A stretch of DNA of 62,761 bases, filler included, from Vermamoeba vermiformis (lineage: Eukaryota), in NCBI GenBank assembly GCA_045837725.1. It is 4 parts of 4 records of this genome, joined end to end, with 100 filler letters (N's around TTAATTAATTAA, not from the genome) between each part and the next. Parts side by side here need not be neighbours in the genome. Positions count along the whole stretch, not along the records: positions 1 to 30,386 come from JBEWZL010000133.1; 3 more parts are not named here. One strand, written 5' to 3'. The position numbers and the translations under genes are program-made. Under the pieces are notes generated by a model. The model was not told the DNA's origin, did no database searches, and saw nothing but the letters and a program-made list of their open reading frames with translations. The stretch's first letter is position 1; each line of letters begins with the position of its first letter. Positions 1 through 33,763 of the stretch are shown piece by piece.

Positions 1-88
1 GTGTAGAAATGGTGTAGCAGAGAATGTAAATATTTGTTTTATTACTAAAGTGTGCAAATGTTTTGATAATCTTTGTAACCTTAAGAAT

Positions 89-3000
89 TTAACCATGGAC
101 TGACACGTCATAATCTATACCAAGTGCAGCTAAGGTAATTGCAGCATATTCAGTTCTGGCTATAACTCGTTTAGGCTCGTATTTGAAGCAAATAAAAATG
201 TTCTGAACAACACGTTCGGCGACACGTGCCAGCGTCCACTGCAAGAAGAAATTCTTGAACGGATCAGCCAGCTGAGCAGCACCAAGACCTTTTCTCCAAG
301 AAGCACCACCAACGACAACTTCGCGCAGTTGCTTGATGGATAGTACTAGCTTCACTGACTGCGCTAGCGTTGAGTAGTTGAGCTCTATGGGTCTAAAATC
401 AGCTCCTTTGACAGCGAACTCCCATGTCACAGGGCCAAAGTTGGTAATGTGAGAGATGGCCATGAGAGGGTCTTCTTGCCCGTCTTGATTTTCGAGTAGC
501 AAAATGACTTCACTTGTTGCAGGCAAGTAATCATTCAAAACAAGCAATCTGGCAGCCTTTCCATAGGGAAATAGCAGTACATGTCGAATGGAGTTAGTCA
601 TTTTAAGACTATACAGGCACTGTTGAGTTGTCGAGCTGACTTCCTCCATGAACCCACAATCAATGAGTGTCGATTGTGCCATTTGGATGTACTCATTGTT
701 GTCCGGGACCAGCAGAAGCAAGTTAACAATGAGTGCTTCAGTTGAAGCAACTTGCATGCCATTTGGAAGAACTTGTGGTGGAGTCTGGACTTGAAACAGG
801 GTTTCAGGCAAGGCTTGGCCCCAAAATTGCATGCCACTGATGTTACTATTGGGTGAGTTGATGTTGCTTCCAAACTGGTATATAGAGTCATAATAATCAG
901 TGTTGAATGGTTGTATTCTGTAGTTAGTTGCTGTTTGAGATTCATCGTCGAGCTGCAAGTCATTGTGGGATATCAGCATTGGTTGTGCACCCATGTTTGT
1001 AGGAGGGAGTGTGGCTCGTTTGTTTCTATATGGCCAATTCAAATAGATAGTTTCTACACTCCCATCAGGAAACCTAAAGCAAAGGGTTTCTTGCTTGTTT
1101 GTGCGAAAGTGCACTTGATTCAAGTAGTAAGTTATGCCATTTGAAGCAGCAAAAGTAATACTCTCCCTTATTTCAGTAAACAACTTTGTGCCTTTAGTTA
1201 GAAGCTCCACTGGTTCAGTAGTAACAAACCAATAAATTGCCCGTGCAGTAAGAGAATTGCCTTGAGGTAGCAGGGGTTGTGATATTTCAACAACCCTTTG
1301 ATTTCTCTGATCTGATGATGCCAGTCGTACTACATCTTTGGCTCGTGCAAAATGTATACGACTCCTTAAAATTAAATTAGAAATGTGATTGCTTTGTGCC
1401 AACACTGACGTTTGGACAGATGGAGTTTGGGTATTCTTTTCTTCTACTGAATCCTCCCTTCATAATCGATTACATGTTGGGATTTTTGAGAACCACACTC
1501 AATAATGTACTTACTTTTGATTCTCTTCTTTAACTGAATCCCTCTTTGGAAAGTCTTTTACTGGACCCTAAACTTTTGGTTAATTCTGCTTTTAAATTTC
1601 TTAAAAGAGATGGCATTTAACTCACAGGCAAGTCAACCTTTTTTTGAGATTCCAAAGTGTCTTCCAAGTCACTTGATTTGTAAACTGAAAATCTACTATT
1701 AAAGTATTAGAATAATATTTGTTACCAACAACTTACTGATGAAGTGGTGGTGTCTCAGCAATTCCTTCACTGATCATTTGTTCTTTCAAAAAAAGCAACT
1801 CGTCCACAAACTCTTGATTATCTTCTCGTTTCATGGATGCTTCAACATCATCTATGAAACACTCATAGATCTCTGTCAGCCCTTCTGCAGAGAGGGTGTT
1901 GAATATCTCTTCCTCATGTTGAAGAATGTACCATGGAAGATATGAAGGACAGTGAATGTATAAGAGAACACTACCGTGGACTATTACTAGCTGATCTTTG
2001 AAATGATGAGCTATCTTCTCAATGATGAGAGTTTTTGAAGCATATTCAGTAAAAGCCTTGATGGGAGATGGTTCAAACTTGAAGCAAATAAACATATTCT
2101 GTTGAATATTTCTAACTATTCTGTCATGAAGAATCCATTCTGACATAAAATCAGTGAATGTCTCAACTAAGTTGTCATAACACTCTTGTTTCTTGCAGCT
2201 AGCACCTCCAACTATTCCATAAAGTTCATGGATAGAAAATATCTTCTTTACAGAGCCACTTAGCGTTGAGTAATCAAGTTCTAAGTCCCCAAAAGTAGCT
2301 GTTTTCAGAACAAACTTCCAAATGGTGTCTTTGATTTCATCATTGAAAGCTGTTTTGACATTAATTACTTGTGTTATTGCCACAATGTCATTTTGCTGTT
2401 CCATTTCATTCTCCAGAAGCAAAATGACTTCACTTGCACGGGGTAAATAATCAGACAATTTGCGAAATCTGCTTATGTCACCATAGGGAAACAGCAAAAT
2501 ATGGCGTTCTTTGTCTATCAGATCCAATTCACTATAAAGTTGCTGCTGAGTGTTCGAGCTGACTTCTTTCTTGAATCCCAATTTGAGTAAGGCACAATCA
2601 ACCATATCAACATATTCTTCAAAGTCAGGAACTAAAAGAAGTATATTGATGATGAGGGGCTTGCTTGACGGACGTTGTAGACCATCACCATAGGCAATTG
2701 GGGGTGCAATATGAGCTGTACATATTTCAACACTTGTCTGTTGAGGGGGTGTGTTGTGCTGTGCATCAGTAGGTTGATTCGTGTTGTTGCCTGTCCCATA
2801 GGCTATCATTGAAGGTTTGTCTTTTGTTTGTTTGTCAAATTCAATGTGCATCACAATATTGCTATTGGAAAAAACAAACTCAAGTGCCGCTGGTTGTGAA
2901 GACTTCATTTCTATTTGAGCAAGGTAATGAAGGACTCCATAGCCATCCATATATTCAAAACACTCCTTCCAGACGAATGAGTCGGGATTACTGAATCGAG

Positions 3001-3417
3001 GAGTAATTTGTTCTAGTGCGATGAACCAATAGACTGTGCGAGTTGCAAGTCGATTGTCAGGAGGTAGAGGGCGAGCCTTTTCAAGGATTTTTTCGCTCCG
3101 CTCCTGTCCTGGACGTAGTCTTGAGCCAAGATCTTTTACTCGCACACAGCGGAGGTGACACCTACATAAACGTTATTACGCCAAGCGTCTGGTTTGTTGA
3201 TTATAAATTAAGCACATACTGGGTACTCGCTTCTTGTGGTTGTTCTTGAACGCCATCATTCAGATCTGCAACATTTCAAAATTAATATTGTTGTATTTAA
3301 ATAAGTGTCTAATAGTCATAAATTTTTTAAAATAATTGTAAATCAGATTAATAAAGATTCTGACTGACAGATTCGGATTTGGATTTAAATTAGAATTTAA
3401 AGAGAGTGCTTACCCAT
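89..3417 (-). CDS. Family B gene B1: two tandem [N-domain + degenerate Ras-like fold + alpha/beta domain] modules, second module truncated, no protease-like domain
   Basis: ATG-G|gtaagc at 3417-3414 splices into ORF 1733-3145. Three small in-frame exons (1695-1626, 1567-1515, from 1457) with GT-AG introns link it to ORF 89-1405. Both ORFs share YWF, NxLLLVPD, YLPxxSEVILLL, GGAS and CFK[FY]EP motifs with 12049-12948 and 14619-16622. Confidence 0.65.
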
Positions 3418-3841
3418 TAATATTTATGCCACCAAATTTTAGTACACGTATCTCACTCGGGTGTGCTGTTTGCTGCTTTTCAAAAACCGTGCAAATAAAA
3501 TTCAAGATCGGTCACGAAACTAAAACGTCATTAATATTAGATCTGGCCAGTTATCTGAGAAACTAACGTAAGTTTCAATGGTTGTGTTATTGTATGCCAG
3601 TGTAAAGTAATATCAGGAGGTGTTGTGTTTGATAAATCGAATCAATTCAATTCTTTTGCCAGGGCTTTTTTTGTGTTGGCCGGAAAAAAATGCGAAGAAT
3701 TTAAATCAAATAATCGCCCAGCCTAGCCCATCAGCTACAATCTTATAACGTTAGTGATCATCATTATCTACCAGGTACTTACGAGACCCAAAAATTTTAG
3801 GCAGTTTATTAGGAATAAATAGCACAATAGTATGTCACTTC

Positions 3842-5329
3842 TCAGGTAGGTTCTACAGCTCTAGGGTACAATCGATTCAAACTCTCGTGCAAATTCTTGT
3901 GCGGATAAACATCGGGCTTTTTTGACCAGATGAACTTCGTCACCTGGTCGTAGCTCCATGTAGGATTAGTCTTATAGAGATAGGCTATACCGATAGACCC
4001 TGACCGTCCTATTCCCGCCCTGCAATGCACCAAGACTTTGCGTCCGTCAGCCAACATTTGCTCGATCCAATCCACTGCTTGAGCAACGAGTGGAGTTGCG
4101 ATCGGATGAGAAGCTCCGTCTAATCGTACAACAATTTGTTAGTTCGCTATTAATATATGTAATCAAAAACTACATAAGATGAATTTCTCGTGCGAGAAAC
4201 AAATAAACTAAACCGGATCTTTGTTCAAGATCGGATGTGTTTTGAGGCCTCAATGAAATTAAATGCTAGTATATTTGCGAATATTTAAAATGCGTACCAG
4301 GGACAGGAATCTTTTTGTATTGAATCGGCGCCACGCCCTCAGTAGCAGGAATTATGACGTCAAGTTCCTCAGCCATGTTCAGAATTGCTGTAAAGCCTAA
4401 TGAAGCGGCCTATAGACAATACGATATCAATTAATATAACTGCTAGTATACAATATTTTCAAGTCGGATGCGTACCTGGTTCGCGGCAATAAAATTTCCA
4501 ACAAAAAAGTTCGGTGCTACTTCGTTGTATTGTGGTCCCTGTGTCCACTTAGAGTTAGGGTTAGGCGGGAACACGTCCACGATTGCATTAGAGCCATATG
4601 AACCGATCCAGATCCAATCTAAGAAAAAAGTTCAGATCCGATTAAATACTTGTATGACGGCAAAATAACAACAAGTTCGTCATATTGGTAAAGTATCTAT
4701 TATTTAGTAATGTACATACCTCCTTTATTGTTGCGGATCCTCGACGTGAACTCGAACTTGCCCTCTGTCGTGCACATGAGAGTAGTTTTGAAGTTGTAAG
4801 AACTGTTGCTCGAGGGAGTAAAATACGTTGATCGTTCAAGCTCCATTGGAATATGATGCCAGCGACCATCAGGATTAGCTTGGTGGATTAGATTCGTGAC
4901 CTCGAAAAAAATTTTGGTTATTTGCGTTGCAATAAACTCTGCAAGCTTGGAAAATACAAAATAATAATTTCCTAATGCTCGTGCTAAGGTGATGAAGAAA
5001 GCTTACTAACTCAGCAGCAATAAGATCTTCGTGCACGACTCGGGATTGGAGCTCAAGCTGTACACGCACCGTTAAAGCTTCTAGCATGTACATCATTGTT
5101 GTCGAATTGCTCGATGGCTTCATAGTTAATGCGGTAATAATTGCGGCAGGCTCATTGTTGGCCATCAGCGGATTTCTAGCATCTAGTGGAGTGGCTGCCC
5201 TAAATGGGTAAAAATTGAGCAAAAATTAACACGAATTAATTATATTTTATTATTGTAAAGGCATTTTAATTAAATAAATAATTAAGTTCATTGCTCTGCA
5301 CCTTACTTTTCTATCGCAGAATGATTCAT
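3842..5329 (-). CDS. Dual-specificity phosphatase with an N-terminal beta-rich (possibly carbohydrate-binding) domain
   Basis: Catalytic motif VHCRAGIGRS (HCx5R) in the last exon. Spliced upstream exons give EVAPNFFVGNF, AILNMAEE and the acid loop PVP-DG. ATG at 5329 is followed by a gtaagg donor. Confidence 0.85.
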
Positions 5330-5631
5330 GTGGCCAATATCAATTAATTAATCTACTGGTAGGTTTTCAAGCATTGTTGCTGTTTTTATGCAATGTCAAC
5401 TTAAATGAAATCAATCAAACAATGGATTCCAGTTTTCCGCAATCGCAATGGTTCAATAAAGAGCAAAGACCTAAAGATACTTAACAATATGAGTTGCAAG
5501 TCGCTCGTGCATTTGCGCAAAATAGAAAAATTGGACGACAAAAGGAATTGTCTCGTCTTTGTCCCATCCGGTTTATACCACCTGTCAATCGGTTGTTGGA
5601 GTTCATTTTTGCAACGACACGTAATTAAAGA

Positions 5632-8267
5632 ATGCAGAAGGTGCATATTCGGCACTTCTTCAGGCTATACGTGCCTTTAGCGTGCCCTCCGGGGTATCAA
5701 CTTCAGATGTTAACTCCGCCGGATAATCCATTCGGCTTTGTTCTTAAAGACAAGGCAACAAATCGGACGCACAATTATCACTTAGAATTATTCTGCATTG
5801 CTGATGACGAAAAGCCCTCAAGATCCTACGAAAACTGGGCGACTTGGGCAAAGCGAAGTCCGATCTGCTTTCAAACGACGGAGAATGATCAAATTGAAGG
5901 AGTATTAATTAGAATTAAAGTAAATCATGGAGTATTTGATTTTAGAAAATTAAATGAGCAACTGGCGCGGATAGCACTGAACTATTCCGTGGATGGAATT
6001 CTACAACAACGTGCAGCCTCTCCGATTATTAAAATCTTGCCTAAAAGACGAACAGCTGCAGATGAAGATGAAGGTAAGCCCTAACTAGCGTCCTAAAATA
6101 CTTAATCTGGACTTTACGTGGCGTGAATCATTAATGATTACGGATAATATTTGCATAATCGTGATTATTTACATTATATTTTATAGTATGTATTCCCATT
6201 AATTGGGAACCAAACACGGGAAGTGGCATTAACGATCCGTCATCCCTGTCGGCTAGCAGCCAAGGCCTCAATTCCGACAATTACAATCCATTCGATGTTT
6301 CTGGCTCATATTCAAGCTATGATAGCCCTGATGACCAATTGTAAGCTTGCCTAACCTTCTGTATACAAAAGATTATTTTTAACCGTTGGATTAGAAAGAC
6401 GTCTTCAGTGGTCGCCGAAACTTCTTCAAATTCAGCGAGTCCCGTGCCCGAGGATGTTAATAAGTTCTAGTAAGTTCGATAATCAATTATGCTAGTTTTG
6501 GATCTCTAACTCTTTTTTTTTAGCTCTTCGTCACCGGATGATTACGAGCAAATGCAAGGCTTTAATACCAATAACATTGATTACGCCATGCAACAACGAG
6601 CAGAGTTGCAGTACATTTCACCGCAAAATGAGAATTATATGGTACTTTACAACGGCAATGCAGAAGTCGTTGGTAACTTCAGAGCATTGAACTTCTACAA
6701 GTCATCAGACATCAATATCAAAGAGGACATCAGGCTGCTCGTTGAAGGTACGTACGAGGCATTGGCTATGGCACTTTGCACTGCCTACCATCAGCATAAT
6801 CGTGCGCGTAATTCATGACTGACACGTGTCATTTATGGTACTTCAGACCATGACTGCCGTGACACTTTGCTTCAAATCGACGGAGTAAACTACAAGTTCA
6901 AGCAAGGAGTGCATCCAGACACGAACAGACGATTTGTTGGCTACATTGCACAACAAGTGGAGAGTGTTGTTCCTGAAGCTGTTCAGCTCATTGATGGTGA
7001 GTTCCATCCAGTCAATAAGCCCTGTTAAACTAATTAACTTCATATAGGTGTGCTGCACGTTGACTATGAGTCTCTGATACCATATCTAAGCGAGTCTATC
7101 AAGCAGAACTTCAATGACATCAAGGATGTTAACGCGAAGGCAGATCGGATACAGCAAGCTATTGACAGTATGTACGAGCAGTTTGTGAAGAAAGAAGACC
7201 TCAAAACACCAGTTGCTGTCACTGAGAGCAGCAGACGAGGTACCAAGAGACCAGCTCCGAGCAAGAAGGGCCTGAGCACGCTGTGGAAGACTATAATCAT
7301 TATCAGTATTGTAGCGACGTGTGCAACAATAGGCCTCGTTACCTACTTAGTGGTAATGTCACAACATCACGATCCAGTGCCTAACACCCCGCCGAGCGTG
7401 CCTGAAATACCCCTCGAACCCGTTGGGGAAGAAAAGTCTGCTACGTTCATCGCACTGAAAGAGTTTTATGAAGCAACGAACGGACCGAACTGGAAGATAC
7501 GAGATAACTGGCTGAACACGAGCGTTACTGTATGCAAATGGTTTGGCGTCAAGTGCAAGAATTCTGCCGTTGTGGAGCTCAATTTACCTTCCAATAACTT
7601 GGTGGGAACCATCCCAGACTCTTTTTCCGAATTAGGAAATTTAACACTGCTCAATTTGACGAACAACTTACTAGAAGGATCCCTTCCCGCGGTAGTATTA
7701 GAGAACAAAGAGCTTCGAACTTTGATTTTCGGCGGAAATAAGTTCAGTGGCACGATACCGAAAGAATATATTCAAACTAGCCTCATAGTTATGGATCTCA
7801 GCAACAACGAGCTTTCGGGTACTATTCCGGATTTGATGGGCATACAATTAGCGATGGTCGAGCTGAACCTATCAAGAAACAAATTTACCGGCGTGATCCC
7901 GCAGTTTGTCATCTCGAGGCTAGATCTGAGCCACAACCGCCTCGAAGGCACGATATCTCTTTCATGGTCAACAACGCACTTGAACTTGTCTAATAATAGC
8001 TTCTATGGCAACCTCCATACCATTACGGAAATGTCGAGTTTGGTAGTGCTAGATCTGTCGTACAATAACTTCAACGACACGCTGGTGCTCAGTTCCGATC
8101 AGTTAAAAACACTAACAGTGTTTGATGTATCGCATACGAAGATCAAACACTTGGTGGAGCAAGAGCCTAGTCCGAGTCCAAACTTCAACAGATGTGACGC
8201 GAGCGGTACTCCGTTCATTTGCCCGCTGCCGAGTTGGGCAGCTAAATGTAAAGCCACCTGTAGCTAA
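5632..8267 (+). CDS. Family A gene A1: MYRF/MrfA-like membrane-tethered factor (putative DNA-binding domain, Peptidase_S74 chaperone, coiled coil, TM, LRR ectodomain)
   Basis: Spliced model. Exon 1 (5632-6073) is a beta-rich domain ending SPIIKILPKRR, then S/D/N-rich exons. Chaperone reads NFYKSSDINIKEDI/…FVGYIAQQVESVVPEAV/…VDYESLIPYL (Ser 6705-6707, Lys 6720-6722). TM is TIIIISIVATCATIGLVTYLVVM, followed by a CxWxGVxC cap and LxLxxNxLxGxIP repeats. Confidence 0.85.
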
Positions 8268-8416
8268 TTTATGTTAATAGTTTTTGCTGTAAATAATAAC
8301 GATTCACTACACACCCTTTTCAATGTGCTTGCATAAGAAATACAACTCGCGAGATCTCGGGGTGTCACCCATTTGACGTCTATCGCGACACGAAAACAGA
8401 ATCATTGTCTTCCTCC

Positions 8417-11073
8417 ATGCAGAAAGTACACGTAAGAAATTTATTTAGGGTGTACGTACCCTTAGTTTGCCCTGTTGGCCATCAAGTGGACCGACTAACA
8501 CCAAATCCGGGCAATAATCGTTTCGGTTTTTCACTCAAAGACACAGCAACAGGCCAAGTGCATGTATATCAACTGCAATTATATTGTTTAGCCGACAGAG
8601 AATATGCCGAACGCACTTATGAGGATTGGGCAACGTGGGGAAAAAGGCATCCGCTCAGTTTTCAAAAGAACCCTCAAACCGAGGAAATTGAAGGTGTAAT
8701 AATTAGAATTAAAGTCAGCCATGGAGTATTCGATTTTAGAAAAATGAAAGAGCAGCTCGTAAGAATATCAGCAATTTACTGCGTGGATGGAGCGAACAAG
8801 AATCAAGGAGTATCTGCGCTATTCAAAGTATTGCCAAAGCGAAGACATGGAAATGATTTAGATAGCGATGGCGGCGATGAGGGTAATTATTATTTTGTTT
8901 TAGCCGCCATCTCTGATGGGACCCAATTCCCATTTTAGTTTCAAACTTCGTTGTTAGGCTCAAAAGTATTTACACGTTATTATAGTTAGGCTATCAATCG
9001 ACTGGGATCCTCTTACGAGTGAACCTAAGCCCGATCAAAGCGAGGCACGTGCGGATATGGATACAACAGCGAATATTGCAAACGCATCGCACGATTATTA
9101 CACGAGCCCTTCGATAGAATCATACGCAAGCTCTACGAGTTACATAGCGTAAGCATCAATAATTTCGCTCCGCTAAGGCGTTATTAAAACTCCTGTGTTA
9201 CTTAGGCCTGGTTCCAATACAAATGTAGTAATATCGAATAGCCCTCAGCAAGAACTATTATCTGGGCATTAGTAAGTTAATTACCAGTACCAACGCTTTC
9301 AATTTAAGGCTTGCTAACCCGCCGCATCTAGTTCCGACTACGAATTGCTAATGTTTCCTAACCCAAATCTACCAACCTTGCAACAACATTATTCTCCTTA
9401 CGAAGATATACCACAGCAGGTGCAGAACGAGAATTACATGGTACTTTACAACGGCAACGCCGAGGTGATCGGAAACTTCAGAGCATTGAACTTCTACAAG
9501 TCATCAGACATCAATATCAAAGAGGACATCAGGCTACTTGTTGAAGGTACTTAGGAAGCGTTAGCTATAGCACTTTACGCTTCCTACCGTCAGCATAATC
9601 GTGCATGTAACACATAACTGACACGTGTCATTTCTCGACTTCAGATCACGATTGCCGTGACACTTTGCTAAAGATCGACGGTGTTGACTACAAGTTCAAG
9701 CAAGAAGTGCATCCAGACACGAACAGACGATTTGTTGGCTACATTGCACAACAAGTGGAGAGTGTGGTTCCCGAGGCTGTTCAGCTCATTGATGGTGAGT
9801 TCCATCGAGCCTACTGTGGTAAATTAGTATATTGAACTGATGATGATATTTTCTAGGTGTGCTTCATGTCGATTATGAAGCTTTACTACCATATCTGAGT
9901 GAATCGGTTCGTGCCAATTACAACGACATTCGAAACATTAAGACAGACAAAACGAAGTTCCATCAAACTTTTGATTCGATATACGAAGAGTTCATCCAAA
10001 AAGAAAAGACGAAGAAAGCCAAGAAGGAGCCTGTGAAGACAAAAGAGAACGAATCTGGCGAATCCGGTCCAGGATTCAGCACGATCTGGAAAGTTATCAT
10101 CTTGATAGCCGGTCTCGCCATAGTAGGTGTTGGTGCGATGATTGCAGTCATGGCCATTCCTGGACATATTACTCATGTTCCTACGGACCCATTGACGCCT
10201 GCCCACTTGAGTCCTGCTGAACCTCAAGATCCGCTGATCGAGCGCGTCTTCAAAGACCTTTATCTCTCTACAAGTGGCCAGAATTGGAGACATAATATTG
10301 GCTGGCTCAACAAATCTACACCTATTTGCACGTGGTACGGCGTGAGCTGCACAGGCAAATCTGTTACGAAGCTAGCATTGCAAGAAAATGGTCTCAGCGG
10401 CACAATTTCATCGAGCTTGTTCGAATTAACAACGCTAATTGAAGTGGATTTATCTGGCAATCATATCAGCGGAACTCTGTCATCGGACATTCCTGCATTG
10501 ACACAATTGCAAGTGCTTCAACTTCAACAAAATGACTTGACCGGCACGATTCCTGAAGAACTCGCGCACATGGCTTCACTTAGTACCCTCCGACTGGACA
10601 ACAATAGATTCAGTGGAACCATTCCTGCGAGCATTGTCAGCGCACCACAGTTGCACGAAGTTAAGCTTGCAAACAATACACTTACAGGCACTATTCCCTT
10701 CGTGAACTTCACGCATCTCGACGTTAGCAATAACCTCCTTGAGGGCTCGTTACCTCAGTTTAGTGCCGTAACGACTAACCTCAACATTGAGAACAATAAG
10801 CTCGTGGGCGATGTCGCGAACCTGAGCAACTTGACTGGCATTGTTTCGCTGCTCATGGGCTCGAACAACTTGACTGGCACATTAAGCTTCAGCGAAACAC
10901 AGCTGCGCACGATTAAAGTGCTTCGTATGGCCCACACGTCGATCAGCAGCATTGAACAGACCCAATATGTACCGGGCAGACCGTCTTTCAAGTCTTGTGA
11001 CATGTCGCACGTGCCTTTGAAATGTCCTTTGCCAAATTGGGCTATTTCTAGCTGTAATGCCAATTGTAAGTAG
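8417..11073 (+). CDS. Family A gene A2 (same architecture, N-domain class shared with A1)
   Basis: MQKVHVRNLFRVYVPL…KVLPKRR; SSDINIKEDI with Ser at 9504-9506; GYIAQQVE exon; TM VIILIAGLAIVGVGAMIAVMAI; CTWYGVSC cap, LRRs, Cys-rich C-cap. Confidence 0.85.
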
Positions 11074-11336
11074 AAGAGTGTAAAATAGCGTGTATAAAAT
11101 TGTATGATTAGGCCTTGGGTTGGATCAGAACTGAATTAAACCTTGTTTGGAGTAATTGGAAGTTATTCGCTATACAGCGCTGTATGGAGGTTACTGCGTA
11201 CTTAGATCTGTTGGTCGAACCCTGATGAATTGGCTCCTCGGAAATGACAGGGAGGCAATTCATTTTAGCTTCGAAAATCGACATTTCTTCTCTGTAGAGC
11301 GTTGGTCGCCAACAACACTAATGCAAATAAGGCAGC

Positions 11337-14042: not shown

Positions 14043-14452
14043 AATCATTAAACAAAATTTCCTTGTGGATCTTCTGATCGGATCTGCCGCTTCGCCCAAA
14101 CTCTCGCCTTTCTATATTGGATATTGCATCTTTTGGTATTGATAGATCGATTCTCGTCGACAAAAGATATAAATTTCTGGCCTAACATTTCAATGCGAGC
14201 GAGTCACGTGCTTGGAAAGAATTGATTTTGGGTGATGCGCATTCAATTCTTTTGGTCTAAAACATAAAAGAGAGGCTTCGAAACACCAAGCCAACAGAAA
14301 GTATACAACAGATCCAATCAATTGGATTTTACGGTAAAAAATCACGAATCCGCAGATTGACATTTAAATTTAATTCATTAAACTAATTTATAATTATAAT
14401 TCATTAAATTTTAGCTCTACAATAGCTAATTATTGCTTCAAGTTCAGGAGAA

Positions 14453-17400: not shown

Positions 17401-17500
17401 AGCAGCGAATGGCAAAGATGTGAGTAGCTGTTGTTATGGACTTCCCACGAATGGTTTGGAGATCTTGAATGACAGCGGCAAACCAACAAAGTATAATTAA
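14453..17500 (+). CDS. Family B gene B3: same architecture as B2, with a longer S/P/Q/T-rich linker
   Basis: ATG 14453; introns after 14502 and at 14615-14659 lead in frame into ORF 14619-16622. Basic motifs AKRPR and KNKRAKLSP. The 3' exons are nearly identical to B2 (GVHSGLQI; NSHRF with TCT at 17084-17086). Confidence 0.78.
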
Positions 17501-17563
17501 AATCTAATTTACTTCTATTACAAAAAATTAAATGGTTAAAGACATCGAAAGGATGTCACAGTG

Positions 17564-20500: not shown

Positions 20501-22371
20501 GACGCCATGCTCTCCAAGCTGTTAGCCTCAAATTGTTCTTTGATCTTTTGTTGATATCTCTTCATGAATTTAGAGCTCTCCAGCAGTGCAAAATCATTAT
20601 TAATATCTCCATGGTCACTCACATAGATCACATGAGTTGCTACATCCAGAGCAGCCCTAATATTAATGTCAGGCAAGGTTGATCAAAATATTTCTACTTA
20701 CGATGTTTGTTGTTTGAGTATGTAGTCTTGTCGTACAAGCCCTGGGCAATCAATCAGCTGACCACCATTTTTCAGAATTGGTAATGGTAGTCTAAACTCA
20801 ACAGATTTGATTAGGCCCCAAAAGTGCCTGTCACCACCACAATAGGACATGTACTTGGCCTTTACGTATTGAAGGCTTTCATCAACTGAGTGGTAAGGTG
20901 ACGTGAAGGTTATCTTTGTTCCAAGCTTTCCACGGAAGTGTGGGTCAATGTGAAGCTCCTCTTCTGTCACTTCAACTAATTTCCGCTCAATTCCAATCAT
21001 GTTTAGGCCTTTGAAGGTAATATTCACTTCTTCGTCCTCATACGCAGCTTGGATGAAATTGTAGTCCTAGAATTGTTAGAGAAATGGTAATAGTACACTT
21101 CAGTAGAACTTACTTTGACTCTACAAAGCTCTATTTCAACTTGTCGGGCAGAAAGAAACTCAATTGTAATTGAAAACATAACTCCATATGAGATGGTTGA
21201 ATTTAACCGTGTTGTTGATGATACACTACCTATGCATCATTTCAGTTAGCAATTAATTAACGCTCGTCTTACAAACCTTCTTGAAGAAGATAGTACGAGC
21301 TCAATTTTTCATTGTTCATCGGCACTTCAACAAAGGAAGTTGTATTGTGATAGATGTTTTCTAGCGAATCCTCTGCATCTATTGTATCGACGACTATTTC
21401 TCGATACTTGAAGTGAAAGGAGTGCCAATACCAAGAAACCTCGTGCCAATAGGCAGCGTCGATTTCACTTTTCTTACGAAGCGAGTGTTTGATAATCTTG
21501 TTGATCAAAAAACTCTTGCCAATACCTACAAAATGAATTTGGTACCTGCACGCAAAGGAATGAACGTATGAATAACTGACCTTGACGTCCGAAAAACACA
21601 ATCTTCGCTCCTTGATCTCGTGGCTGTGATTCGGTCATAGTCAAACTCTAAACGCTTGTAGTTAATAGTTTATTCGCATATTTACTCTCTATTGAGTTTT
21701 TAAAGATTAACTTGCGTATTTTGTCGTCCCAATAAATTTATAAAATATTTGCAAAACGTACTTTGATATGTGGCCCAAGAGCAACGCGTAATTCCTTTGC
21801 ACCTTTTGACGAAGAGTTCTCTACGTGGCGCAGTGTTTCGGCTACGTGCTCGGTGACTAATTCGGAAAATTGAATTGTTGAAACCGGATGCGTGACTGAA
21901 AAGTTAAAGTGAGAAAATAAACCCTCATATATATAGATCAATTAATTACTTACTATGACGCTCAAAGACTAGCGGGCATATTTGCTTCGACTTTCTGAGA
22001 CCAAAAATTGCAATTTTTGTCGCATCCGAAGTGTCATTGATACGTTGCACTGAATCAGGTTCAATTACGTAAACTGTTGCATTTTGCGTTTCATTCCACT
22101 TGTGTAATGCTTTGTATAGGTCTTTATCTTCGTTATCAAGACGTTGCCGTAATTGTCCAACAAGTTGTGCGAAGTCCTTTCGTTGCCAGACATCCACGCC
22201 TTGAAATTTGTATTGCCAGTATAACATACTGGCAATTAGTGACTCGCCGACGAACTTCTCGGGGAGTTGGATTTCAGTTAAGTGCAGAAGATCCAATAAT
22301 AATTTGAAGCTCTCCTCCTCCTCCTCCTCCTTCGATTTCGGCGTCTTTTCTATTGCTATGTTGTCTTCCAT
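17564..22371 (-). CDS. Large dynamin-superfamily GTPase, NUGGC/SLIP-GC-like, with a D/N-rich insert; 5' end uncertain
   Basis: Splicing gives the P-loop IVFFGRQG|IGKSFLINK. FWGLIKSVEFRLPLPILKNGGQLIDCPGL carries G3 (DxxG) and IVFNNID is G4-like. Long helical C-terminal exons, all on the minus strand with gt-ag boundaries. Confidence 0.7.
19040..19378 (-). repeat. Coding trinucleotide low-complexity tract (AAT/GAT/AAC/GAC) encoding an Asn/Asp-rich insert
   Basis: Repeated TTGTCA/TTATCA on the + strand; reads NDNDNNN…YIDDND in ORF 18506-19636. Confidence 0.9.
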
Positions 22372-23385
22372 TCAAAATATCGATTGAATTGAAGTGGTAA
22401 GAAAGCGATTCAAAACCTGACTGGCTTTCGCAATTTTCCTGGCCAGAAATCTTTCGGACAATCCTACTTGACATGAGATCAGTAAATAAATGATACACGC
22501 GCTAGCATTATATTAATTATCGTTTAAATGAAGTACTCAGACTAAAATTCGTACCACAAATCGGGTTTCTCCGCCAAGAAACGTGCTTGTCCGTCAAAAT
22601 CCAATACCACATCCAAAAACAAAGCTACGATGTAAACAAATGCAGCCGCTGTAGCCTCGTTTTATATTGGTTGCATGCCACTCTAATTCTTCTAGTAACA
22701 TACGCGTTCTTTAGATCAAAATTTCACGCCATCGAATGAAGACATCTTGACGTGCGCTACAAAAGAAAGGTTATTCGTGCTTCGAGCCAATAGTAGTTAA
22801 CTACGTACATAGGTAACACAAGCTTAAAGTGCGAGTGATCTGCGCGAATTTACCATAGTTCGAAATGACAGCTCTGTGGACCACCAATTATGGTATGCAG
22901 CAGCTTAGTAAGTATCAAACTGGAATAAAATATTTAATATAACTTGACGAAAGATACAAAGTAAATACTAAATAAAAACCGAAACATCTGGCAAATTTCG
23001 TTTTGCATTATTTAATTGTCCAGTTGGTACGATGTCGGTCCGACAAAAATTAAAATTTACATTGGCTATTGTTCCAATTATTCTAATATATTAAGTATTA
23101 TTTTTTAAAAATGCTTACCACGGGATTTGGAACCCAAAACAACACTGCTTAATTTCTCTTTCTGCATTATCAATCATATGAATATATTTAATTGGTTGTC
23201 TGTTACGAACGGCTTCCTTACTAAACTGTTTTTTGGTCAGATGAAACGCAATTTGTTCTGACCACGCGGCAATGTCCACAAGATTTCGATACTAAGTCGT
23301 GAGTTTCACAAGCTAATCAATATAAATTACAATATTGCTCCGCAGGGTTTCAGGTACGCCGAATTAGCATTTCAAGCAGATGTAA

Positions 23386-23682
23386 ATGGATCTCGCATTG
23401 GAAGAAAATGGTCTCAGCGGCACAATTTCTTCGAGCTTGTTCGACATAACGACGCTAATTGAAGTGGATTTATCTGGCAATCATATCAGCGGAACTCTAT
23501 CATCGGACATTACTGCATTGACACAATTGCAAGTGCTTCAACTTCAACGAAATGACTCGACTAGCACGATTCCTGAAGAACTCGTACACACGGCTTCACC
23601 TAGTACCCTCCGGCCGGATGACCTTTCTGCAAGTGGCGATAGTCTGTTGAGCAGTGTCAGCGCGGCCTAGTGGCACGAAGTG
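23386..23682 (+). pseudogene. Orphan LRR fragment closely related to the A2 ectodomain
   Basis: Near-identical to about 10372-10661 (ENGLSGTISSSLF…IEVDLSGNHISGTLSSDI…LTQLQVLQLQ). Later repeats are decayed, with a stop at 23668-23670 and no upstream exons. Confidence 0.85.
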
Positions 23683-23900
23683 CTACTTACACGAGCTCGC
23701 GACTTGCTCAGTGGAAGAAGAGGTGCGTTATTGAAGTGCTAAAGCTTGGCGTACTCATAAATCATAGCGAACAGATGAAGGATTTCGCATTAACGCGCGC
23801 CTTTGAGCTTCGGCACGTGCCCGCCGCCGAAAAGTAGACGAAGAGTGCACAGAAACTTAAATTTGAATACTTTGAACGCAGTAACTCAACTAGTCATTTT

Positions 23901-25042
23901 ATGGGCCTCAAAGTATCCCGAACCATCTCTCCGTCGGAAGACCCTTCGCAAAATCGCAAATCCACATCTTCCTCAAATCACCCTTCAGCAACAAGTGACG
24001 GAGCAGCGAGCGTTCACAAAAAAATTAAAGGCCTAGGGGATGACTGGGCGAGTATTAGCGCCGACGACTATTATTCACCAGAGATCTTAGCCAACAAAAT
24101 GTTTCCGTTCCCGAAAAATGCTAGCGGCGTAAGTACGATGAATACTAAAATTATAGAGATAAACTATATATTTTGCTATTTTTAAAGCTAATTATTGCAT
24201 TATAGACAATCAGACTGCCTGTCAAGCTCTTCATCTCTTCAATTACTCCGTCTCTTGTAAATATGGCGAAAGTCCTCAATTTCTTTAAGAAAGGTTCACT
24301 AATATTTGGAGCATCGCACGTAGGATTGCAATTTGGTTCCGTTGTAAGTTAAAATTTAATTCTTTTGCTCGATCTGATTACTTTCTGATTTTAAGGTCAT
24401 TGATTGGAACGAAAGCAGCCTTGTACATATTGGAGAGTTAAAATCTAAGACAGCTACAATATTATTTGATGTTCACGATTCAGTCCAAGTCGTTTACACT
24501 CCTGAACTGGAACAAAAGGTCAGCCAAATCCGCTAAAAGTGATTACAAAGATTGACATTAGCTTTTAGGCTGTGGAATTTGTACAAAAATGGAACTCTAC
24601 GGTCAAATACTCGCAGACAGAGTGGAACTGTCACAAGTTCGTCAAAGATTTTTTGGATCAAGTCCTCAGCTTGTCGCTTTCGACTTGTTTCCAGGGTATT
24701 CTTGGTAAGTACTATATTTAATGTTCTAATTTTAGCTCATTATTCTCTTCAGGCGAATATATTGAATCGTGTATCATCACCAAAGGCGATCCAAAGCCAC
24801 GTCTCAAGTCGAAAAACCATGGAGTATTAACATTCGACACGCATCAAGACTTGGAGCGAATAGAGCGCGAAAGAGAAGAGGACAAAGACAAGCCTGAAGA
24901 TCAGCAACGTTGGAAATTTACTCCTGAAGAGCTCAAATTGATGAAAGTGTTTCATCGAGGCTTTCAAATGCGCGAAGCAGTTTCTGGTCATTATGTCAAT
25001 TGTTATTACGGCAATCCGACTGGCGCATTGGAGATCCTGTAA
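23901..25042 (+). CDS. Stand-alone permuted papain-like (PPPDE/NlpC-P60-type) enzyme, His-Cys intact, possible N-myristoylation
   Basis: Five exons: MGLKVS…; FGASHVGLQFGSV (His 24317-24319); VIDWNESS; KYSQTEWNCHKFVKDFL (Cys TGT 24629-24631); FHRGFQM…LEIL*. Intron positions match the C-terminal domain of B2 and B3. Confidence 0.75.
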
Positions 25043-25231
25043 CGGAACAGTCTCCGACTATTTATTTGTACAATACTCTCAAGAATAATGCTTTGTTGTT
25101 ACCTTCAACGACAATATATTATTTTAAAATTGTTGAAATGAACTGGCCGAACTATTTGCCCGGATGTCACATTTGTCTCGTCACATCTTAAGTGCGCACA
25201 CAAAACCGCCATTCAATCAATTTCGGTAAAG

Positions 25232-27632
25232 ATGGCACACAGTGCACGTATTCGTAACCTATTCGATCTTTTCGTTCCTCTCAACGGTCCTGCTAATCTG
25301 GAAGCGGTTCCTTTACTTGGAACGAATTTTGGATTTGCGTTGGGTCTCAAAAACAACGATGAAAATTGCCTTCAATACCACATTCAACTAGCTTTTAAAC
25401 ATCCGAGAACAGGTGAAGACGTTGCGTTGACCAACTGCTTCGAGTGGGCGAAGAGAAACGCAATTCGATTTCAACGCTCGGAGGAAACACAAGAAGTCGA
25501 GGGAATAATAGTTAAGATTAAATTACCGCCCAAAGTATTCGATTTCAGAAAGCATAGAACACAACAAACGCGAATTCAAGTGAATGAAATCAAAAATGGT
25601 CAGATCATCAAACAAGCATTCAGCAACATCGTCCAAATATTACCTAAAAGTCGGACCTCGCATACAGACTCTACGGGTAAGCGATTTAACATTTTTAAGA
25701 ATTTTTTAAGATAAAGATACGTTTAATTAGCTCGTCTGCGGAATCTGCGCTAACGATTCACTTTAGTACTTATACCAGTTTTATGGATGCAAGACGTTAT
25801 TCCATTGAGCCCTGTTTCACCGCTGAACCTTTCTTCGTATGTGGCGGAAAGTCCGGCGGACGAGATCGAGAACCTAGGAGACATCGACCCACTGCTGCCC
25901 ACGTAAGTTTCTTCTGACCGTGAATTCCTTACCTAACGTTTATGTGTAGCCCGTATAATTACGATGCAGAGCTACAGTACCTGTCGAACAACAATACCGG
26001 CGAGCAATACATGGTACTTTACAACGGCAACGCAGAAGTCGTTGGTAACTTCAGAGCATTGAACTTCTACAAGTCATCAGACATCAATATCAAAGAGGAC
26101 ATCAGGCTGCTCGTTGAAGGTACGTACGGTGCAGGACAAGCACTCTGCACGAGCTGCTACTTCGTGTACCAATTGACTAACACGTGTCATATCTCTCCTT
26201 CAGACCGCGATTGCCGTGACACGTTGCTTCAAATCGACGGAGTAAACTACAAGTTCAAGCAAGGAGTGCATCCAGACACGAACAGACGATTTGTTGGCTA
26301 CATTGCACAACAAGTGGAGAGTGTTGTTCCTGAAGCTGTTCAGCTCATTGATGGTAAGTTCTATTGTCTCGTTTATACTCATATCGACTATGAAACTAAT
26401 ACAGAGCATACTTAGGTATTCTTCATGTCGACTATGAGTCTCTGATTCCATATCTGAGCGAGTCAGTTCGTGCCAACTATGGTGACATCAACGATCTTCG
26501 CTCAAAGACAGAACGAATTCAACGAACTATTGACGAGATGTACGAGCAATTTATCCGTAAGACAGAGTCTCCTCAGCAAACTTCGACGTCATCAAAGCCT
26601 CAACGTGCATCACGAGTGAAAAAACTTGTTCTGCTTAGCGTCATTTCGGTTACAGTATTGGTCGCTATACTTGCCACGTTGGCCTTCATTGGTGTGATCC
26701 CTATCCAAAACTTTGGTGGCTCGCAAGACGACACACCACCAAGCCCAGACTCGAAGTTTCCACCAGAGTTCAGCGTCGCTTGGAAAGATTTATATAGTTC
26801 AACGAATGGTGACACGTGGCTGAGAAAAGACAATTGGCTCAACGAACAAATATCAATTTGCGAGTGGTACGGCGTGAAGTGCATCGAACAACAGCGTTAC
26901 TTGAACGGAACTGCGGTGACATATAATTTCATTCACATCTCATTGGACAACAACAACTTGACTGGCACATTGCCCTCGTCATTGAACAATATCACGTGGC
27001 TTCAAAGTCTCGCTCTGCGGAACAACTCGTTGACTGGAACCATCCCTGAAGAATTCGCGAAGATTGAAAACTTGGAAGTTCTAAGATTGTCGAGCAACAG
27101 ATTGACGGGAACGTTGCCTAATATGGCTAAATTTTCCAAGTTGATAGTGCTGGATCTGAACAGAAATCAGTTCTACGGCACATTCCCGAAAGATTTCTTC
27201 GACAACGATCACATCAATGAAGTCTACTTGGCAAACAATCAGATCGAAGGCCCCATACCAGGGCATAGCCGACTAAAAGTGCTGGATCTGAGTTCAAACC
27301 GCATCAACGGATCTCTTCCCTTCTTAAGCGTTGCATTGGCATACCTCGATTTATCCAACAATAGGATTGAAGGCGAGGTCTTAGCGTCAACTGCAAACGC
27401 GATCCATCTCAACTTGGCGAACAACAGATTCAGCGGTCATTTTACAATGTCAGCCGAACAATTCATCAAAATGAGGTACCTTAATATTTCAAATAATATG
27501 CTTCGTACTTGGCAAGACGAGTACCCTCGCGTGCCTGAGAACGGGTTCCGATGCGACGCAAGTAATAATCAGTTTGCTTGTCCGTTGGGATCGGTTTATA
27601 TCGAACATATTTGTCGTGCTACTTGTAAATAG
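25232..27632 (+). CDS. Family A gene A3 (second N-domain class, S74 chaperone, TM, LRR ectodomain)
   Basis: MAHSARIRNLFDLFVPL…VFDFRK…SNIVQILPK; SSDINIKEDI with Ser at 26077-26079; TM LVLLSVISVTVLVAILATLAFIGVI; CEWYGVKC cap, LRRs, C-cap ending CRATCK*. Confidence 0.85.
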
Positions 27633-27869
27633 GATCATAATTAAATAGTGTAGATATTAGGCTCCTGCTGATTTAAAATTCAGCTAGATCAAGACTTACT
27701 TACCGACGAAATAGCTGAATAGATTAACGATCAGGTTCGCCAAAGTACTTTAAAATAATTCCGGCCTTTTTCAAGTAAAATGATGCAAAATCTGATAGGA
27801 CTGGCTATTTGCCCGGAAGGGAATCAACTGGCACTCGTCACTTTTTTACTATGTATTGATCATCAACAA

Positions 27870-30386
27870 ATGGCACACACCGCTCGCATTCGGAACATAT
27901 TTGATTTGTATATTCCTCTAAGTGGTCCCGCGAATCTCGAATCTGTTCCGTTGTTGGGGAAGAATTTTGGATTTGCTTTGGCCGAGAAAAATAACGATGA
28001 AAGCAGCCTACAGTACCATATAACACTTGTTTATAAACAGCCTCAAACTAACGAAGAAGTTTCATTGCCAAACTGCTTCGTTTGGGCGAAGAGAAAACCA
28101 ATAAGATTTCAACGCTCTGAGGAAACACAAGAAGTTGAAGGAATAGTCGTAAGAATTAAGCTTCCAGCCAAATTGTTCGATTTTCGAAGATACAAAGCCC
28201 GAGAAATACGAATTCAAGTGAATGAAATCAAAAATGGCCAGATCATAAAACAAGCATTCAGCAACATCGTCCAAATATTACCAATAAATCGCCAAGGGAG
28301 CTCCGACTCAACGGGTAAGCAATTGGATCAAGTTAAAAATATTTTCGGCAGGCGTACGCCAAAAAATACGAAAATATGTATTTTCTCGTGGATTTACTCA
28401 CCGGTTTATTGTTAAGCTTTTATCCCCGTGTTTTGGGTACCAGATTTCGTTCCGACATCACCTTTAAGCCAAGTTTCGCCCAATCTTTCGGCTTATGTTG
28501 AAGAAAGTCCACACGAGTCTTTTTATGTTGACTACAACCAAGCGAGCTATTCTAACGAAGACTCGGGGCAAGGTTATTCGCAGACCAATCAGATGTATCC
28601 CTACGATCAGTCAAAGTAAGTTTTCACATCCGTTTTTTACGGCTATTAACTGCTTCGTAGCGCTATCGAATTGCAATATTTGCCCAAGAACAACAACAAC
28701 GATACAGAGCTACAGTATATAGCGAGCAACAACAATGGCGAGCAATACATGGTACTTTACAACGGCAATGCAGAAGTCGTTGGAAACTTCAGAGCATTGA
28801 ACTTCTACAAGTCATCAGACATCAATATCAAAGAGGACATTAGGCTGCTCGTTGAAGGTACGTAGGATGTGCTGGATAGTACATGTTGAAGCTCTACCAG
28901 ACACATGGGATCGCGTGTAACATTTGACTGACACGCGTCATTTATGTACTTTAGATCATGACTGCCGCAATACTCTACTTCAAATCGACGGTGTCAAGTA
29001 CAAGTTCAAGCAAGGAGTGCATCCAGACACGAACAGACGATTTGTTGGCTACATTGCACAACAAGTGGAGAGTGTTGTTCCTGAAGCTGTTCAGCTCATC
29101 GATGGCGAGTTCTATTGTCTCATTTATGCTCATATTGACTATCAAACTAATTGCGGTCACACTTAGGTATTCTTCACGTTGACTATGAGTCTCTGATACC
29201 ATATCTGAGCGAGTCAGTTCGTGCCAATTATGGTGACATCAGTGATCTTCGATCGAAAACAGATCGAATCCAACGAACTATTGACGAGATGTACGAGCAA
29301 TTTCTGCAAAAAGACAACGCTGCTAAGCAATACTCAACGCCGTCACGCAATAATAATAACTATCAACGCGGATCACGAACGAAAAAGATCGTGCTCCTTG
29401 CAGTTAGCTGTGTAACGATTCTAGCCACCGTCCTCATGGCACTGGCATTCGCTGGAGTTATTCCGCTCCACAGCGCCGAGCAAGATGATTTTAAAATTCC
29501 GCCGGAGTTCGTTACGGCTATGAAAGATTTTTATGTTGCAACAAACGGTGACACGTGGCTGAGAAAAGACAATTGGCTCAACGAACAAATATCGATCTGC
29601 GAGTGGTACGGCGTTAAATGCGAGAACACGTGGCATTATTTCGACGAGCTTACGAACGGCACTATGCCACGCGAGTTGTGGACCAACATTCACATTTGGC
29701 TGGACAACAATAACTTGACTGGCACATTGCCATCGTCACTGAACAAAATCACGTGGCTTAGTAGTCTTGTACTGCGGAACAACTCGTTGACTGGCACTAT
29801 AACTGACAAATTTGGACAGCTTGACAGATTGACAGAGCTAAGGCTTGCGGACAACAGTCTCACGGGATCACTTCCAAATATAGTAAAATATCCTGAACTG
29901 CGCGTGCTCGATCTGAGCAGAAACAAATTCTACGGCACACTTCCCGAACATTTTCTCAGTGGCGAATGGATTGCGGAAGTGAACTTGGCAAACAATCAGA
30001 TCGACGGAACAATTCCGGACTGTCGAATGATTGACACGCTGGATCTGAGTTCAAATCGATTCAATGGAACACTGCCGTACTTTGGATTCGGTCTAAAGTA
30101 CCTCAATTTGGCGAACAATATGCTGACAGGCGACTCATTTGCCGCGACCAGATCCGACTCATTAGTTCATCTCGATTTGTCCAATAATCAGCTCAACGGA
30201 GATTTCCATCTTTTACCGGTTGCATTCAACCAAATGGTCTACCTTGATATTTCAAACAATCGATTTCGGAAGTGGGATGAGGTCACTGTTTTACCAGAAA
30301 ATCTGGCTGTTTGTTCAGCGAGTAACAACCAGTTTGTATGTCCGTTAGGATCTGATTGGATGCAGAACAAATGCTTTGCGACGTGT
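27870..30386 (+). CDS. Family A gene A4 (close paralogue of A3), cut by the contig end just before the expected stop
   Basis: MAHTARIRNIFDLYIPL; SSDINIKEDI with Ser at 28815-28817; GC donor at 29105 where paralogues have GT; TM IVLLAVSCVTILATVLMALAFAGVI; LRRs ending CFATC at the gap. Confidence 0.85.
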
Positions 30387-30486
30387 NNNNNNNNNNNNNN
30401 NNNNNNNNNNNNNNNNNNNNNNNNNNNNNNTTAATTAATTAANNNNNNNNNNNNNNNNNNNNNNNNNNNNNNNNNNNNNNNNNNNN
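30387..30486. other. Artificial contig linker
   Basis: 44 N + TTAATTAATTAA (stops in all six frames) + 44 N. Confidence 0.97.
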
Positions 30487-33520: not shown

Positions 33521-33763
33521 TCTGGCGTTGTCCAGAGGATATTTCATGCATTGGCTGTTCGACTTAGTATTTTTTCCATAACCCAAACATCCGTCAACCC
33601 CAAGTATATATAAAATATTATCAGCAGCACTGCTTGCTATTATTTTAGCATTAAATTAATTTTTACTTGCCCTTGGCGCAACTCGAAAAAAAAGTCAAAT
33701 CTGGATTTTTTTCAGTAAATTTCTCCTTTATTGTTTTATTGGCCAGGTTCCCAGTGGAATCGA

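Follow-up and report, generated by a model that had tools for sequence, protein, structure and literature searches.

Genes for putative MYRF-like leucine-rich repeat receptors interleaved with a second gene family in Vermamoeba vermiformis

Gene order and the genes of family A

The window analysed here is a stretch of 62,761 nucleotides (nt) of DNA from Vermamoeba vermiformis (assembly GCA_045837725.1), made of four parts joined end to end, and the subject of this study is the gene cluster in its first part (positions 1-30386, from JBEWZL010000133.1). By self-comparison, two repeated gene families, here called A and B, were recognised within the first 30.4 kb, family A encoding proteins in which a Peptidase_S74 (ICA) domain is joined to a leucine-rich repeat (LRR) ectodomain. 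The window is eukaryotic, with reading frames split among different frames and with GT-AG introns of 47-102 nt, and contigs of run X8 were 95-100% like it. Gene models were derived from X8 splice joints, conserved splice sites and a small dynamic-programming script. From left to right the order is B1 (minus strand), a second copy B1' (minus), a dual-specificity phosphatase gene (minus), A1, A2, B2 and B3 (all plus), a P-loop GTPase gene (minus), an LRR relic, a solo gene related to the C-terminal domain of family B, A3 and A4 (all plus). An earlier note on this DNA, referred to below as the original prediction, had given the same order as far as it went, but had missed B1' (1737-3172). The features of family A are as follows.

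5632-8267, plus strand: A1, 754 residues in six exons; spliced model, Pfam LRR_1, LRR_8 and LRRNT_2
6623-7195, plus strand: S74 cassette of A1 with the SDINIK site and two introns at conserved positions; 78-83% identity among the four copies by blastn
8417-11073, plus strand: A2, 758 residues in six exons, laid out like A1; model, head 58% identical to the A1 head
9422-9920, plus strand: cassette counterpart in A2 (blastn)
23389-23715, plus strand: LRR relic, an A2-like ectodomain fragment without head, S74 domain or membrane helix; Pfam LRR_1, E 5.2e-07
25232-27632, plus strand: A3, 705 residues in five exons, laid out like A1; Pfam Peptidase_S74, E 2.7e-11, and LRR families
26001-26552, plus strand: cassette counterpart in A3 (blastn)
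27870-30386, plus strand: A4, at least 737 residues in five exons, its end lost in the run of N at 30387; model and X8 joints
28739-29314, plus strand: cassette counterpart in A4 (blastn)

The spliced models of the four intact A genes are open and share their intron positions, two of the introns lying inside the S74 domain. The A3 intron between 26353 and 26416 is supported by RNA reads, and the A4 joints from 28313 to 28416 and from 29103 to 29166 are present in X8 contigs. The second intron in the A4 cassette (29105-29166) has GC-AG ends, yet it is skipped in the X8 contigs. An interpretation of the A genes as pseudogenes was ruled out by four open frames out of four and by the conserved splice sites.

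From the N- to the C-terminus, all four proteins comprise a head of 148 residues encoded by exon 1, a Ser- and acidic-rich linker, the Peptidase_S74 domain, a helical segment, a membrane helix and the LRR ectodomain, which combines LRRNT_2 and plant-type repeats with Cys-rich caps. Pfam searches of the A exons returned Peptidase_S74 (PF13884, E 2.7e-11 for the A3 open reading frame, ORF), LRRNT_2, LRR_1, LRR_8 and LRR_4; LRR_ComC was also matched in the window; this family and the CfaA_B_C family matched further to the right, both known mainly from Dictyostelium, are weak pointers to an amoebozoan. At the start of the S74 domain, the motif SDINIK (Ser-x4-Lys) is found in each of the four copies. 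On inspection, a single hydrophobic stretch of about 23-25 residues, preceded by Lys and Arg, follows some 60-70 residues after the ICA core, and no N-terminal hydrophobic signal of the signal peptide kind was seen. From these sequences we infer that the A receptors are single-pass type II membrane proteins with the LRR outside the cell or in the lumen.

The same layout was present in P0076, a public model of 726 residues that was found via cluster membership and is independent of the window. In this protein the head is followed by the S74 domain (residues 264-323, matched with E 8.6e-12 over positions 1-57 of the 58 in the profile) and by LRRs from about residue 490, and its ectodomain matched those of GSO1, ERL1 and FLS2 with E values of 8e-60 to 1e-53 (phmmer).

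The LRR relic that had been proposed is genuine, a fragment of an A2-like ectodomain. It is 85% identical in DNA to positions 10372-10661 of A2 over 290 nt and 72% identical in protein to the A2 ectodomain over 109 residues. When all A and B parts were compared with the whole window by tblastn, the relic was the sole A- or B-like piece beyond the annotated genes, and none was found in the region from 30.4 to 62.8 kb. X8 depth was zero across 23073-23739, the interval containing the relic.

Beyond the window, a metagenome scan with the S74 exon of A1 yielded 36 loci with 157,077 nt in total, mostly on short contigs; ten of the loci exceed 5 kb. All 36 contain the S74 domain; 29 of them have a head on the same strand upstream of it, and 22 have an LRR downstream. 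The seven headless loci have less than about 700 nt upstream of S74, and most of the 14 loci without LRR stop soon after S74. A second head and S74 domain follow downstream on the same strand in loci L001 and L003, and L009 has one extra S74 match on the opposite strand. Several side observations were made in this set. Beside the tandem A pair of L003, three long ORFs of 254, 554 and 534 residues (192-4104, minus strand) are mobile-element-like. ORFs near the A genes at L008:6262-6735, L009:6262-6735 and L031:6371-6727 have the motif ..PYMH.FV.HVG.FLKT.. in common and may represent a repeated element. The contig name of L020 indicates a human oral metagenome, the remaining family A loci being environmental, and part of the window sequence is also present in water metagenome runs. 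Searches of openly accessible literature revealed no description of an S74/ICA plus LRR architecture in protists or Amoebozoa.

The S74 cassette and the head domain

About 500-580 nt form a block with 78-83% identity among all four A copies, as compared with protein identities of 32-38% for heads and LRRs between the pairs of copies. Over the 104 codons of the S74 core, the four copies are 92-98% identical in protein, with a ratio of nonsynonymous to synonymous substitution rates (dN/dS) of 0.04-0.07. The synonymous distance (dS) of this core is 0.19 for A1-A3, 0.25 for A1-A4 and 0.30 for A3-A4, and 0.50 for A2-A3, 0.67 for A1-A2 and 0.69 for A2-A4. In the head and in the LRR, dS is at least 1.19 or not computable, and the copies pair as (A1,A2) and (A3,A4). 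Because dS in S74 is low and contradicts the pairing of the flanks, the cassette appears to have a younger history, unlike that of its flanks, which fits a process like gene conversion. Cassette intron 1 is 62-82% alike over all pairs, compared with 56-63% for intron 1 of the genes, and cassette intron 2 tracks the pair tree. Mosaic identity inside both families, which had been noted originally, was recovered as blastn blocks in family A and in B3, which is split between B1-like and B2-like parts.

LRR diversification had been named originally among the traits typical of immune-receptor loci, and positive selection on exposed LRR positions was not demonstrated. For the exposed LRR codons, the ratio of nonsynonymous to synonymous differences per site (pN/pS) was 0.70 (A3-A4) and 0.84 (A1-A2), as compared with 0.40 and 0.60 for the remaining positions; no value reached 1, and only 35 codons were available, with synonymous sites near saturation. 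The comparison with immune-receptor loci was thus upheld in part, in that tandem paralogues, one pseudogene fragment and a conversion-like signal are present, and pN/pS is raised at exposed LRR positions without exceeding 1.

For the head, a profile of the four window sequences was run against 1.84 billion proteins and matched 50 representatives at E<=1e-3, of which 44 reached E<=1e-10 and 9 reached E<=1e-30. Most of the matches are 145-240 residues long and correspond to single-exon ORFs; longer proteins with an A head were not found via word-index search. One candidate relative, P0039 (1289 residues), is a bacterial repeat protein matched only at profile positions 32-54 and was dropped. An AlphaFold2 model of the A3 head, built with 50 sequences, is all-beta with a mean predicted local distance difference test (pLDDT) score of 93.5. 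The head is a new sequence family with a confidently folded beta-sandwich, 50 representative clusters and no Pfam entry.

Comparison of the head model with PDB by Foldseek gave no match at E<=1e-3. With an exhaustive structural aligner, the DNA-binding domain of EBF1 ranked first (Z 8.1, root-mean-square deviation 3.6 Å, 125 of 148 residues aligned), and further matches were NF-kB and velvet (both Z 5.5), RBPJ (5.3), Ndt80 (5.1) and the MYRF DNA-binding domain (5.0). As modelled, the fold is an immunoglobulin (Ig)/p53-like sandwich, and fold likeness alone leaves DNA binding undecided; the weak likeness to Ndt80 and MYRF may be compatible with distant kinship. The head has eight conserved basic positions; at positions 139-141, a basic residue is present in 98%, 78% and 90% of the sequences in the alignment. 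It ends with the basic motif LPK[KR]R, which resembles a nuclear localisation signal and occurs as a strict pattern in 29 of the 50 sequences.

Family B and the neighbouring genes

The remaining genes of the cluster are listed below.

1-1459, minus strand: B1, N-domain and core, with the 3' part beyond the window start and a possible first exon at 1562-1616; tblastn with P0001 residues 39-481
1737-3172, minus strand: B1', N-domain and core without C-terminal domain, 5' exons uncertain; tblastn with P0001 residues 26-551, 40% identity
3842-4560, minus strand: dual-specificity phosphatase, upstream exon limits approximate; DSPc PF00782, E 1.1e-14, score 54.8 bits (cut-off 33.5)
11550-14042, plus strand: B2, seven exons, first exon not found, C-terminal domain with NSHRF; X8 spliced contigs, open translation
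14453-17500, plus strand: B3, complete, with NSHRF; models and homologues
17564-21638, minus strand: P-loop GTPase, model of about 1200 residues; G1, G3 and G4 motifs, spliced model
21946-22371, minus strand: ORF of 141 residues upstream of the GTPase, ending in degenerate P-loop-like KIAIFGLRKSKQ; no Pfam match
23901-25042, plus strand: solo gene, about 300 residues in five exons, homologue of the B C-terminal domain; tblastn, three X8 joints, relative P0063 (301 residues)

Family B is represented in the window by four genes, not three. The B3 ORF has 11 relatives, the best being the transcript-derived protein P0001 (881 residues, E 4.9e-170). From its proposed start at 14453, B3 begins with MSDRN...AAKRPRE, and the AAKRPR motif is common to B3 and P0001. 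Its 5' and core parts are B1-like (74% and 88% DNA identity), and its 3' part is B2-like (85% across 980 nt that include introns). For family B, searches with P0001 gave no match in Pfam and chance-level matches only among PDB sequences, and a B profile found no PDB sequence at E<=10; a metagenome scan with the B alignment gave 593 pattern matches, none of which was confirmed. The AlphaFold2 model of P0001, built from 22 rows, has a mean pLDDT of 61.7. In this model the N-domain (residues 41-150) is confident (85-97) and the core (260-570) moderate; residues 629-735 lie below 50 and those beyond at 56-88, too weak for a fold search with the C-terminal domain. Foldseek found nothing in PDB at E<=1e-3 and listed only Ig constant domains for the N-domain. 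With the exhaustive aligner, the N-domain reached Z 7.1 to an amoebic cysteine-protease inhibitor. Residues 259-432 gave Z 8.1 to a chlamydial MTAN, 15 of 50 rows belonging to the MTAN/purine-nucleoside-phosphorylase group and others to receiver, Rossmann and TIR folds. These model-based matches reflect common three-layer and Ig-like arrangements, and no function is drawn from them. Family B is accordingly described as having a predicted Ig-like N-domain, a predicted three-layer alpha/beta domain, a conserved C-terminal domain of papain-like appearance and a nuclear-signal-like motif.

In the C-terminal domain of B, the window copies share 74-83% identity with P0001, as against about 50% in the core, and this domain is therefore taken to be under strong constraint. 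The solo gene, a homologue of the domain, begins with the myristoylation-like MGLKVS, and P0063 likewise starts with MG...S. The solo gene and P0063 have NCHKF where B2, B3 and P0001 have NSHRF and P0062 has NSLRF. Nearest to this domain by language model are clusters of PPPDE/Peptidase_C97 (score 0.91, 12 hits of the family set). The PF05903 profile did not match P0001 at E<=1 or P0062 and P0063 at E<=10, and P0063 gave chance-level matches only to PDB sequences. The Cys/Ser difference behind the proposed contrast of an active protease with pseudo-enzymes is therefore real, but the enzyme family itself is without a Pfam or PDB sequence match. When the A3 head was paired with the N-domain and core of B3 in a complex prediction, no answer was obtained, the score being 0.00 against a mark of 0.34.

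In the GTPase, the G1 motif GRQGIGKS is formed only by splicing from 21581 to 21525 (a 55-nt intron), G3 is DCPG and G4 is the variant NNID; these motifs define a P-loop GTPase, not the dynamin superfamily. Since at least four exons contribute to the G domain, a test with single exon ORFs is weakened; these had no match to the Dynamin_N, GBP or RHD3_GTPase profiles or to PDB sequences. A language-model lead to GBP/RHD3 had a score of 0.92, with recognition below the mark of the tool. The label "dynamin-like" of the original prediction was not confirmed. The long helical tail of the protein includes an Asn/Asp/Tyr-rich insert of about 110 residues (18976-19479, minus strand), with internal DNA repeats at 19040-19376. 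The ORF at 21946-22371 may represent either a remnant of its own or a 5' exon belonging to the GTPase gene. In the phosphatase, which is an ordinary member of DSPc, the active-site loop VHCRAGIGRSG is intact.

To the right of the cluster, the window contains genes unrelated to it: a signal peptide peptidase (Peptidase_A22B) at 41255-41620 (plus strand), a P-type ATPase at 45982-49500 (minus), a CfaA_B_C-like Cys-rich protein at 52163-52972 (minus) and an LRR_6 (RNI-type) protein at 59029-59787 (plus). An intact ORF of 580 residues at 49936-51675 (plus strand) encodes a DDE_1 transposase domain (E 6.5e-09) and, C-terminally, a ZZ zinc finger (E 3.4e-05); it belongs to a pogo/Tigger-like element or has been domesticated from one. 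A minisatellite at 32580-33522 has a period of about 39 nt (also 69, 108 and 147) in about 25 copies with 74-79% match, and its several open frames give rise to long artefactual ORFs on both strands. The segments 30387-30486, 51907-52006 and 56041-56140 each consist of two runs of 44 N around 12 bases.

Interpretation and comparison with known systems

The reading that is favoured here, by a modest degree, is that the core of the locus is a tandem array of single-pass type II MYRF-like receptors partly homogenised by gene conversion. In such a receptor the LRR would face outward or into the lumen, and the S74 domain would trimerise on the cytosolic face and cut the chain at its own Ser. Cleavage would free a trimer of head and linker, which LPK[KR]R would carry into the nucleus, where the head would bind DNA. 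Family A has a MYRF-like layout and is filed outside the MYRF family, since a head of the Ndt80 type, a defining feature, was not found. Concerning the label of a receptor-transcription-factor given to A originally, the part that stands is a receptor fused to a predicted releasable N-terminal module, but its DNA-binding head stays conditional.

Several results weigh against this reading. The cassette introns are only 58-82% alike, below the prediction from a dS of 0.19, and strong nucleotide-level constraint on the cassette exons may have acted instead of conversion. Because the introns are less alike than the exons, either the conversion tracts would be short or exon constraint would add to the likeness. 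The LRR ectodomain is not obligatory in family A, since the membrane helix is followed by a non-LRR acidic tail in L019 (1215-1973), and L035 (975-1316) and L036 (826-1167) end at this helix as tail-anchored forms. No match to Pfam NDT80_PhoG was obtained with the four window heads, six longer relatives or P0076, the head itself belongs to no Pfam family, and the 50-sequence head profile found nothing among PDB sequences at E<=10. A Z score of 8.1 is about the usual best for models that lack any clear relative. EBF1 was nearly equalled by an S-layer domain (Z 7.9) and by beta-sandwiches of transglutaminases (7.0-7.4), and re-examination of the Foldseek list gave mainly V-set Ig domains (Z 5-6.5) and p53 (5.0). 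As these middling fold matches are shared by S-layer, transglutaminase and Ig domains, DNA binding is a matter of inference. Three raw RNA runs that bear this species label gave 43, 34 and 68 reads on 20 kb; they were 95-99% alike but few and mostly partial, and the runs are therefore uninformative on expression.

The relation of family A to its neighbours bears on how the array is to be understood. Three junctions of A/B type lie within 30 kb, namely B1'-phosphatase-A1, A2-B2 with a gap of 0.5 kb and solo gene-A3 with one of 0.2 kb. In the 84,391 nt of flanks of the metagenome A loci, mostly on short contigs, relatives of B, the solo domain, the GTPase and the phosphatase were found in none of the 36 loci at E<=1e-5; these flanks hold unrelated genes and transposon-like ORFs. 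Among 20 A-head clusters looked up, four (those of P0014, P0015, P0018 and P0026) include proteins from a contig of 457,969 nt, and in two of these, the clusters of P0018 and P0026, proteins from a contig of 386,137 nt are found as well. The first of these contigs, from another assembly, has the A relatives P0014, P0071, P0074 and P0026 together with the B relatives P0002 and P0005, and the second has the A relatives P0073 and P0077 with the B relatives P0003 and P0066; A and B were assigned to the same contig by equal size alone, and a single locus, assembled twice, may underlie both contigs. The evidence for A-B linkage is mixed, as the co-localisation expected elsewhere appears to exist on these two contigs but was found in none of the metagenome loci. 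With regard to expression, X8 spliced contigs cover B2 (six joints), the solo gene (three joints), A3 and A4, and B3 and the GTPase are represented by unspliced pieces (one of 251 nt for the GTPase). Transcripts therefore exist, which says nothing on a joint response.

As an alternative to a functional association, A and B may be independent tandem arrays of unrelated function that came to lie side by side in a fast-evolving, duplication-prone region, with A possibly sensing developmental, mating or peptide signals instead of serving immunity. This is a possibility to be taken seriously, though one that we hold to be rather improbable. It is consistent with the extra A parts without B in L001, L003 and L009, and the relic, the mosaic B genes, the minisatellite and the DDE transposase ORF suggest a recombination-active region. 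Moreover, the LRR type matches plant peptide and hormone receptors as well as receptors of microbial patterns, and dN/dS of 0.25-0.27 over the whole ectodomain indicates purifying selection. The repeated interleaving within 30 kb and the two shared contigs argue against it, as they probably exceed what two unrelated small families would show.

It is unlikely that the released head is not a transcription factor, so that S74 would free a cytosolic effector or adaptor, or that the protein would act as an uncut trimeric receptor. Such an output would agree with the generic Ig-like sandwich matches and with the missing sequence link to DNA-binding families, but not readily with the conservation of LPK[KR]R and of the eight basic positions, or with a DNA-binding domain, that of EBF1, as best structural match. 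The precedent of MYRF speaks against it, too: to our knowledge, this transcription factor is the only eukaryotic case of an S74 domain followed by a membrane helix. It is also, as far as we know, the only well-studied eukaryotic use of S74.

The original prediction had suggested that A, B, the protease and the GTPase may form one pathogen- or prey-sensing system. In this reading A would sense, and B, the solo Cys protein, the GTPase and perhaps the phosphatase would transduce or execute. Besides the junctions, the shared contigs and the X8 coverage of A3, A4, B2, the solo gene and, by its one piece, the GTPase, the nuclear-signal-like AAKRPR of B points in this direction. On the other side, adjacency is the only tie found, partner genes are absent from the flanks of all 36 metagenome A loci (ten of them above 5 kb), where unrelated and transposon-like ORFs occur, the two large contigs, matched by size alone, may show a single locus twice, and neither the GTPase nor family B fits a known immune family. 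The single-system immune reading is thus unproven, and we consider it improbable. Least credible, and very doubtful as a whole, is a ligand-driven one-chain pattern receptor and transcription factor in which an LRR ligand would cause trimerisation, a phage-derived S74 self-cut and passage of a trimeric DNA-binding head to the nucleus, with B, the membrane-anchored Cys peptidase-like protein and the GTPase as co-evolving partners in an immune locus. If so, one protein would span the whole path from sensing to transcription.

With a MYRF-like receptor array as the favoured reading, family A represents a putative LRR sensor fused to a predicted self-cleaving module, and in an environmental protist lineage its genes have expanded into arrays. 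Should the head bind DNA, the route from an outside ligand to transcription would be very short, and family A would be a natural system in which to ask whether S74 cleavage can be gated by ligand-driven trimerisation. Family A adds a new beta-sandwich domain, and family B a second unnamed multi-domain family.

Compared with known systems, the GTPase shares G1/G3/G4-like motifs, large size and a long helical tail with the dynamin superfamily (mitofusin/BDLP-like and GBP/RHD3-like), and its motifs are presumably mitofusin-like, but it differs in giving no profile or PDB sequence match per exon. The C-terminal domain of B and the solo gene are near PPPDE/Peptidase_C97 (DeSI-type) by language model, and the solo gene has His-containing and N-C-H-x-F motifs, which we take to resemble those of that family; the differences are Ser for Cys in the B copies, the lack of a profile match and a fold model of low confidence.

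Family A shares with MYRF/MrfA a beta-sandwich head at the N-terminus that carries a basic NLS-like motif, then an S74 (ICA) domain with Ser-x4-Lys, a helical segment and one membrane helix, and finally an outside domain at the C-terminus that is variable; the predicted type II layout is common to both. It differs in that the head is a separate sequence family without an NDT80_PhoG match and with Z scores of only 5.0-5.1, the outside domain is a plant-type LRR, and the genes stand in tandem arrays with a homogenised S74 cassette. External control of MYRF cleavage is still debated. The catalytic dyad of MYRF, S578/K583, has the same Ser-x4-Lys spacing, and so has that of phage endosialidases (PMC3742443). 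In C. elegans, the LRR membrane protein PAN-1 is reported to be tied to the release of a MYRF-type factor (PMC8099431); there the LRR resides on a separate partner, whereas in the predicted proteins of family A it is fused in one chain.

Family A resembles the plant LRR receptors FLS2, GSO1, ERL1 and PEPR1 in its LRRNT_2 and plant-specific LRRs (E down to 8e-60) and in the occurrence of tandem genes plus a pseudogene fragment. In contrast to these receptors, it has no kinase domain and carries the LRR C-terminal to the membrane helix, with opposite topology, and its output would be self-cleavage instead of phosphorylation.

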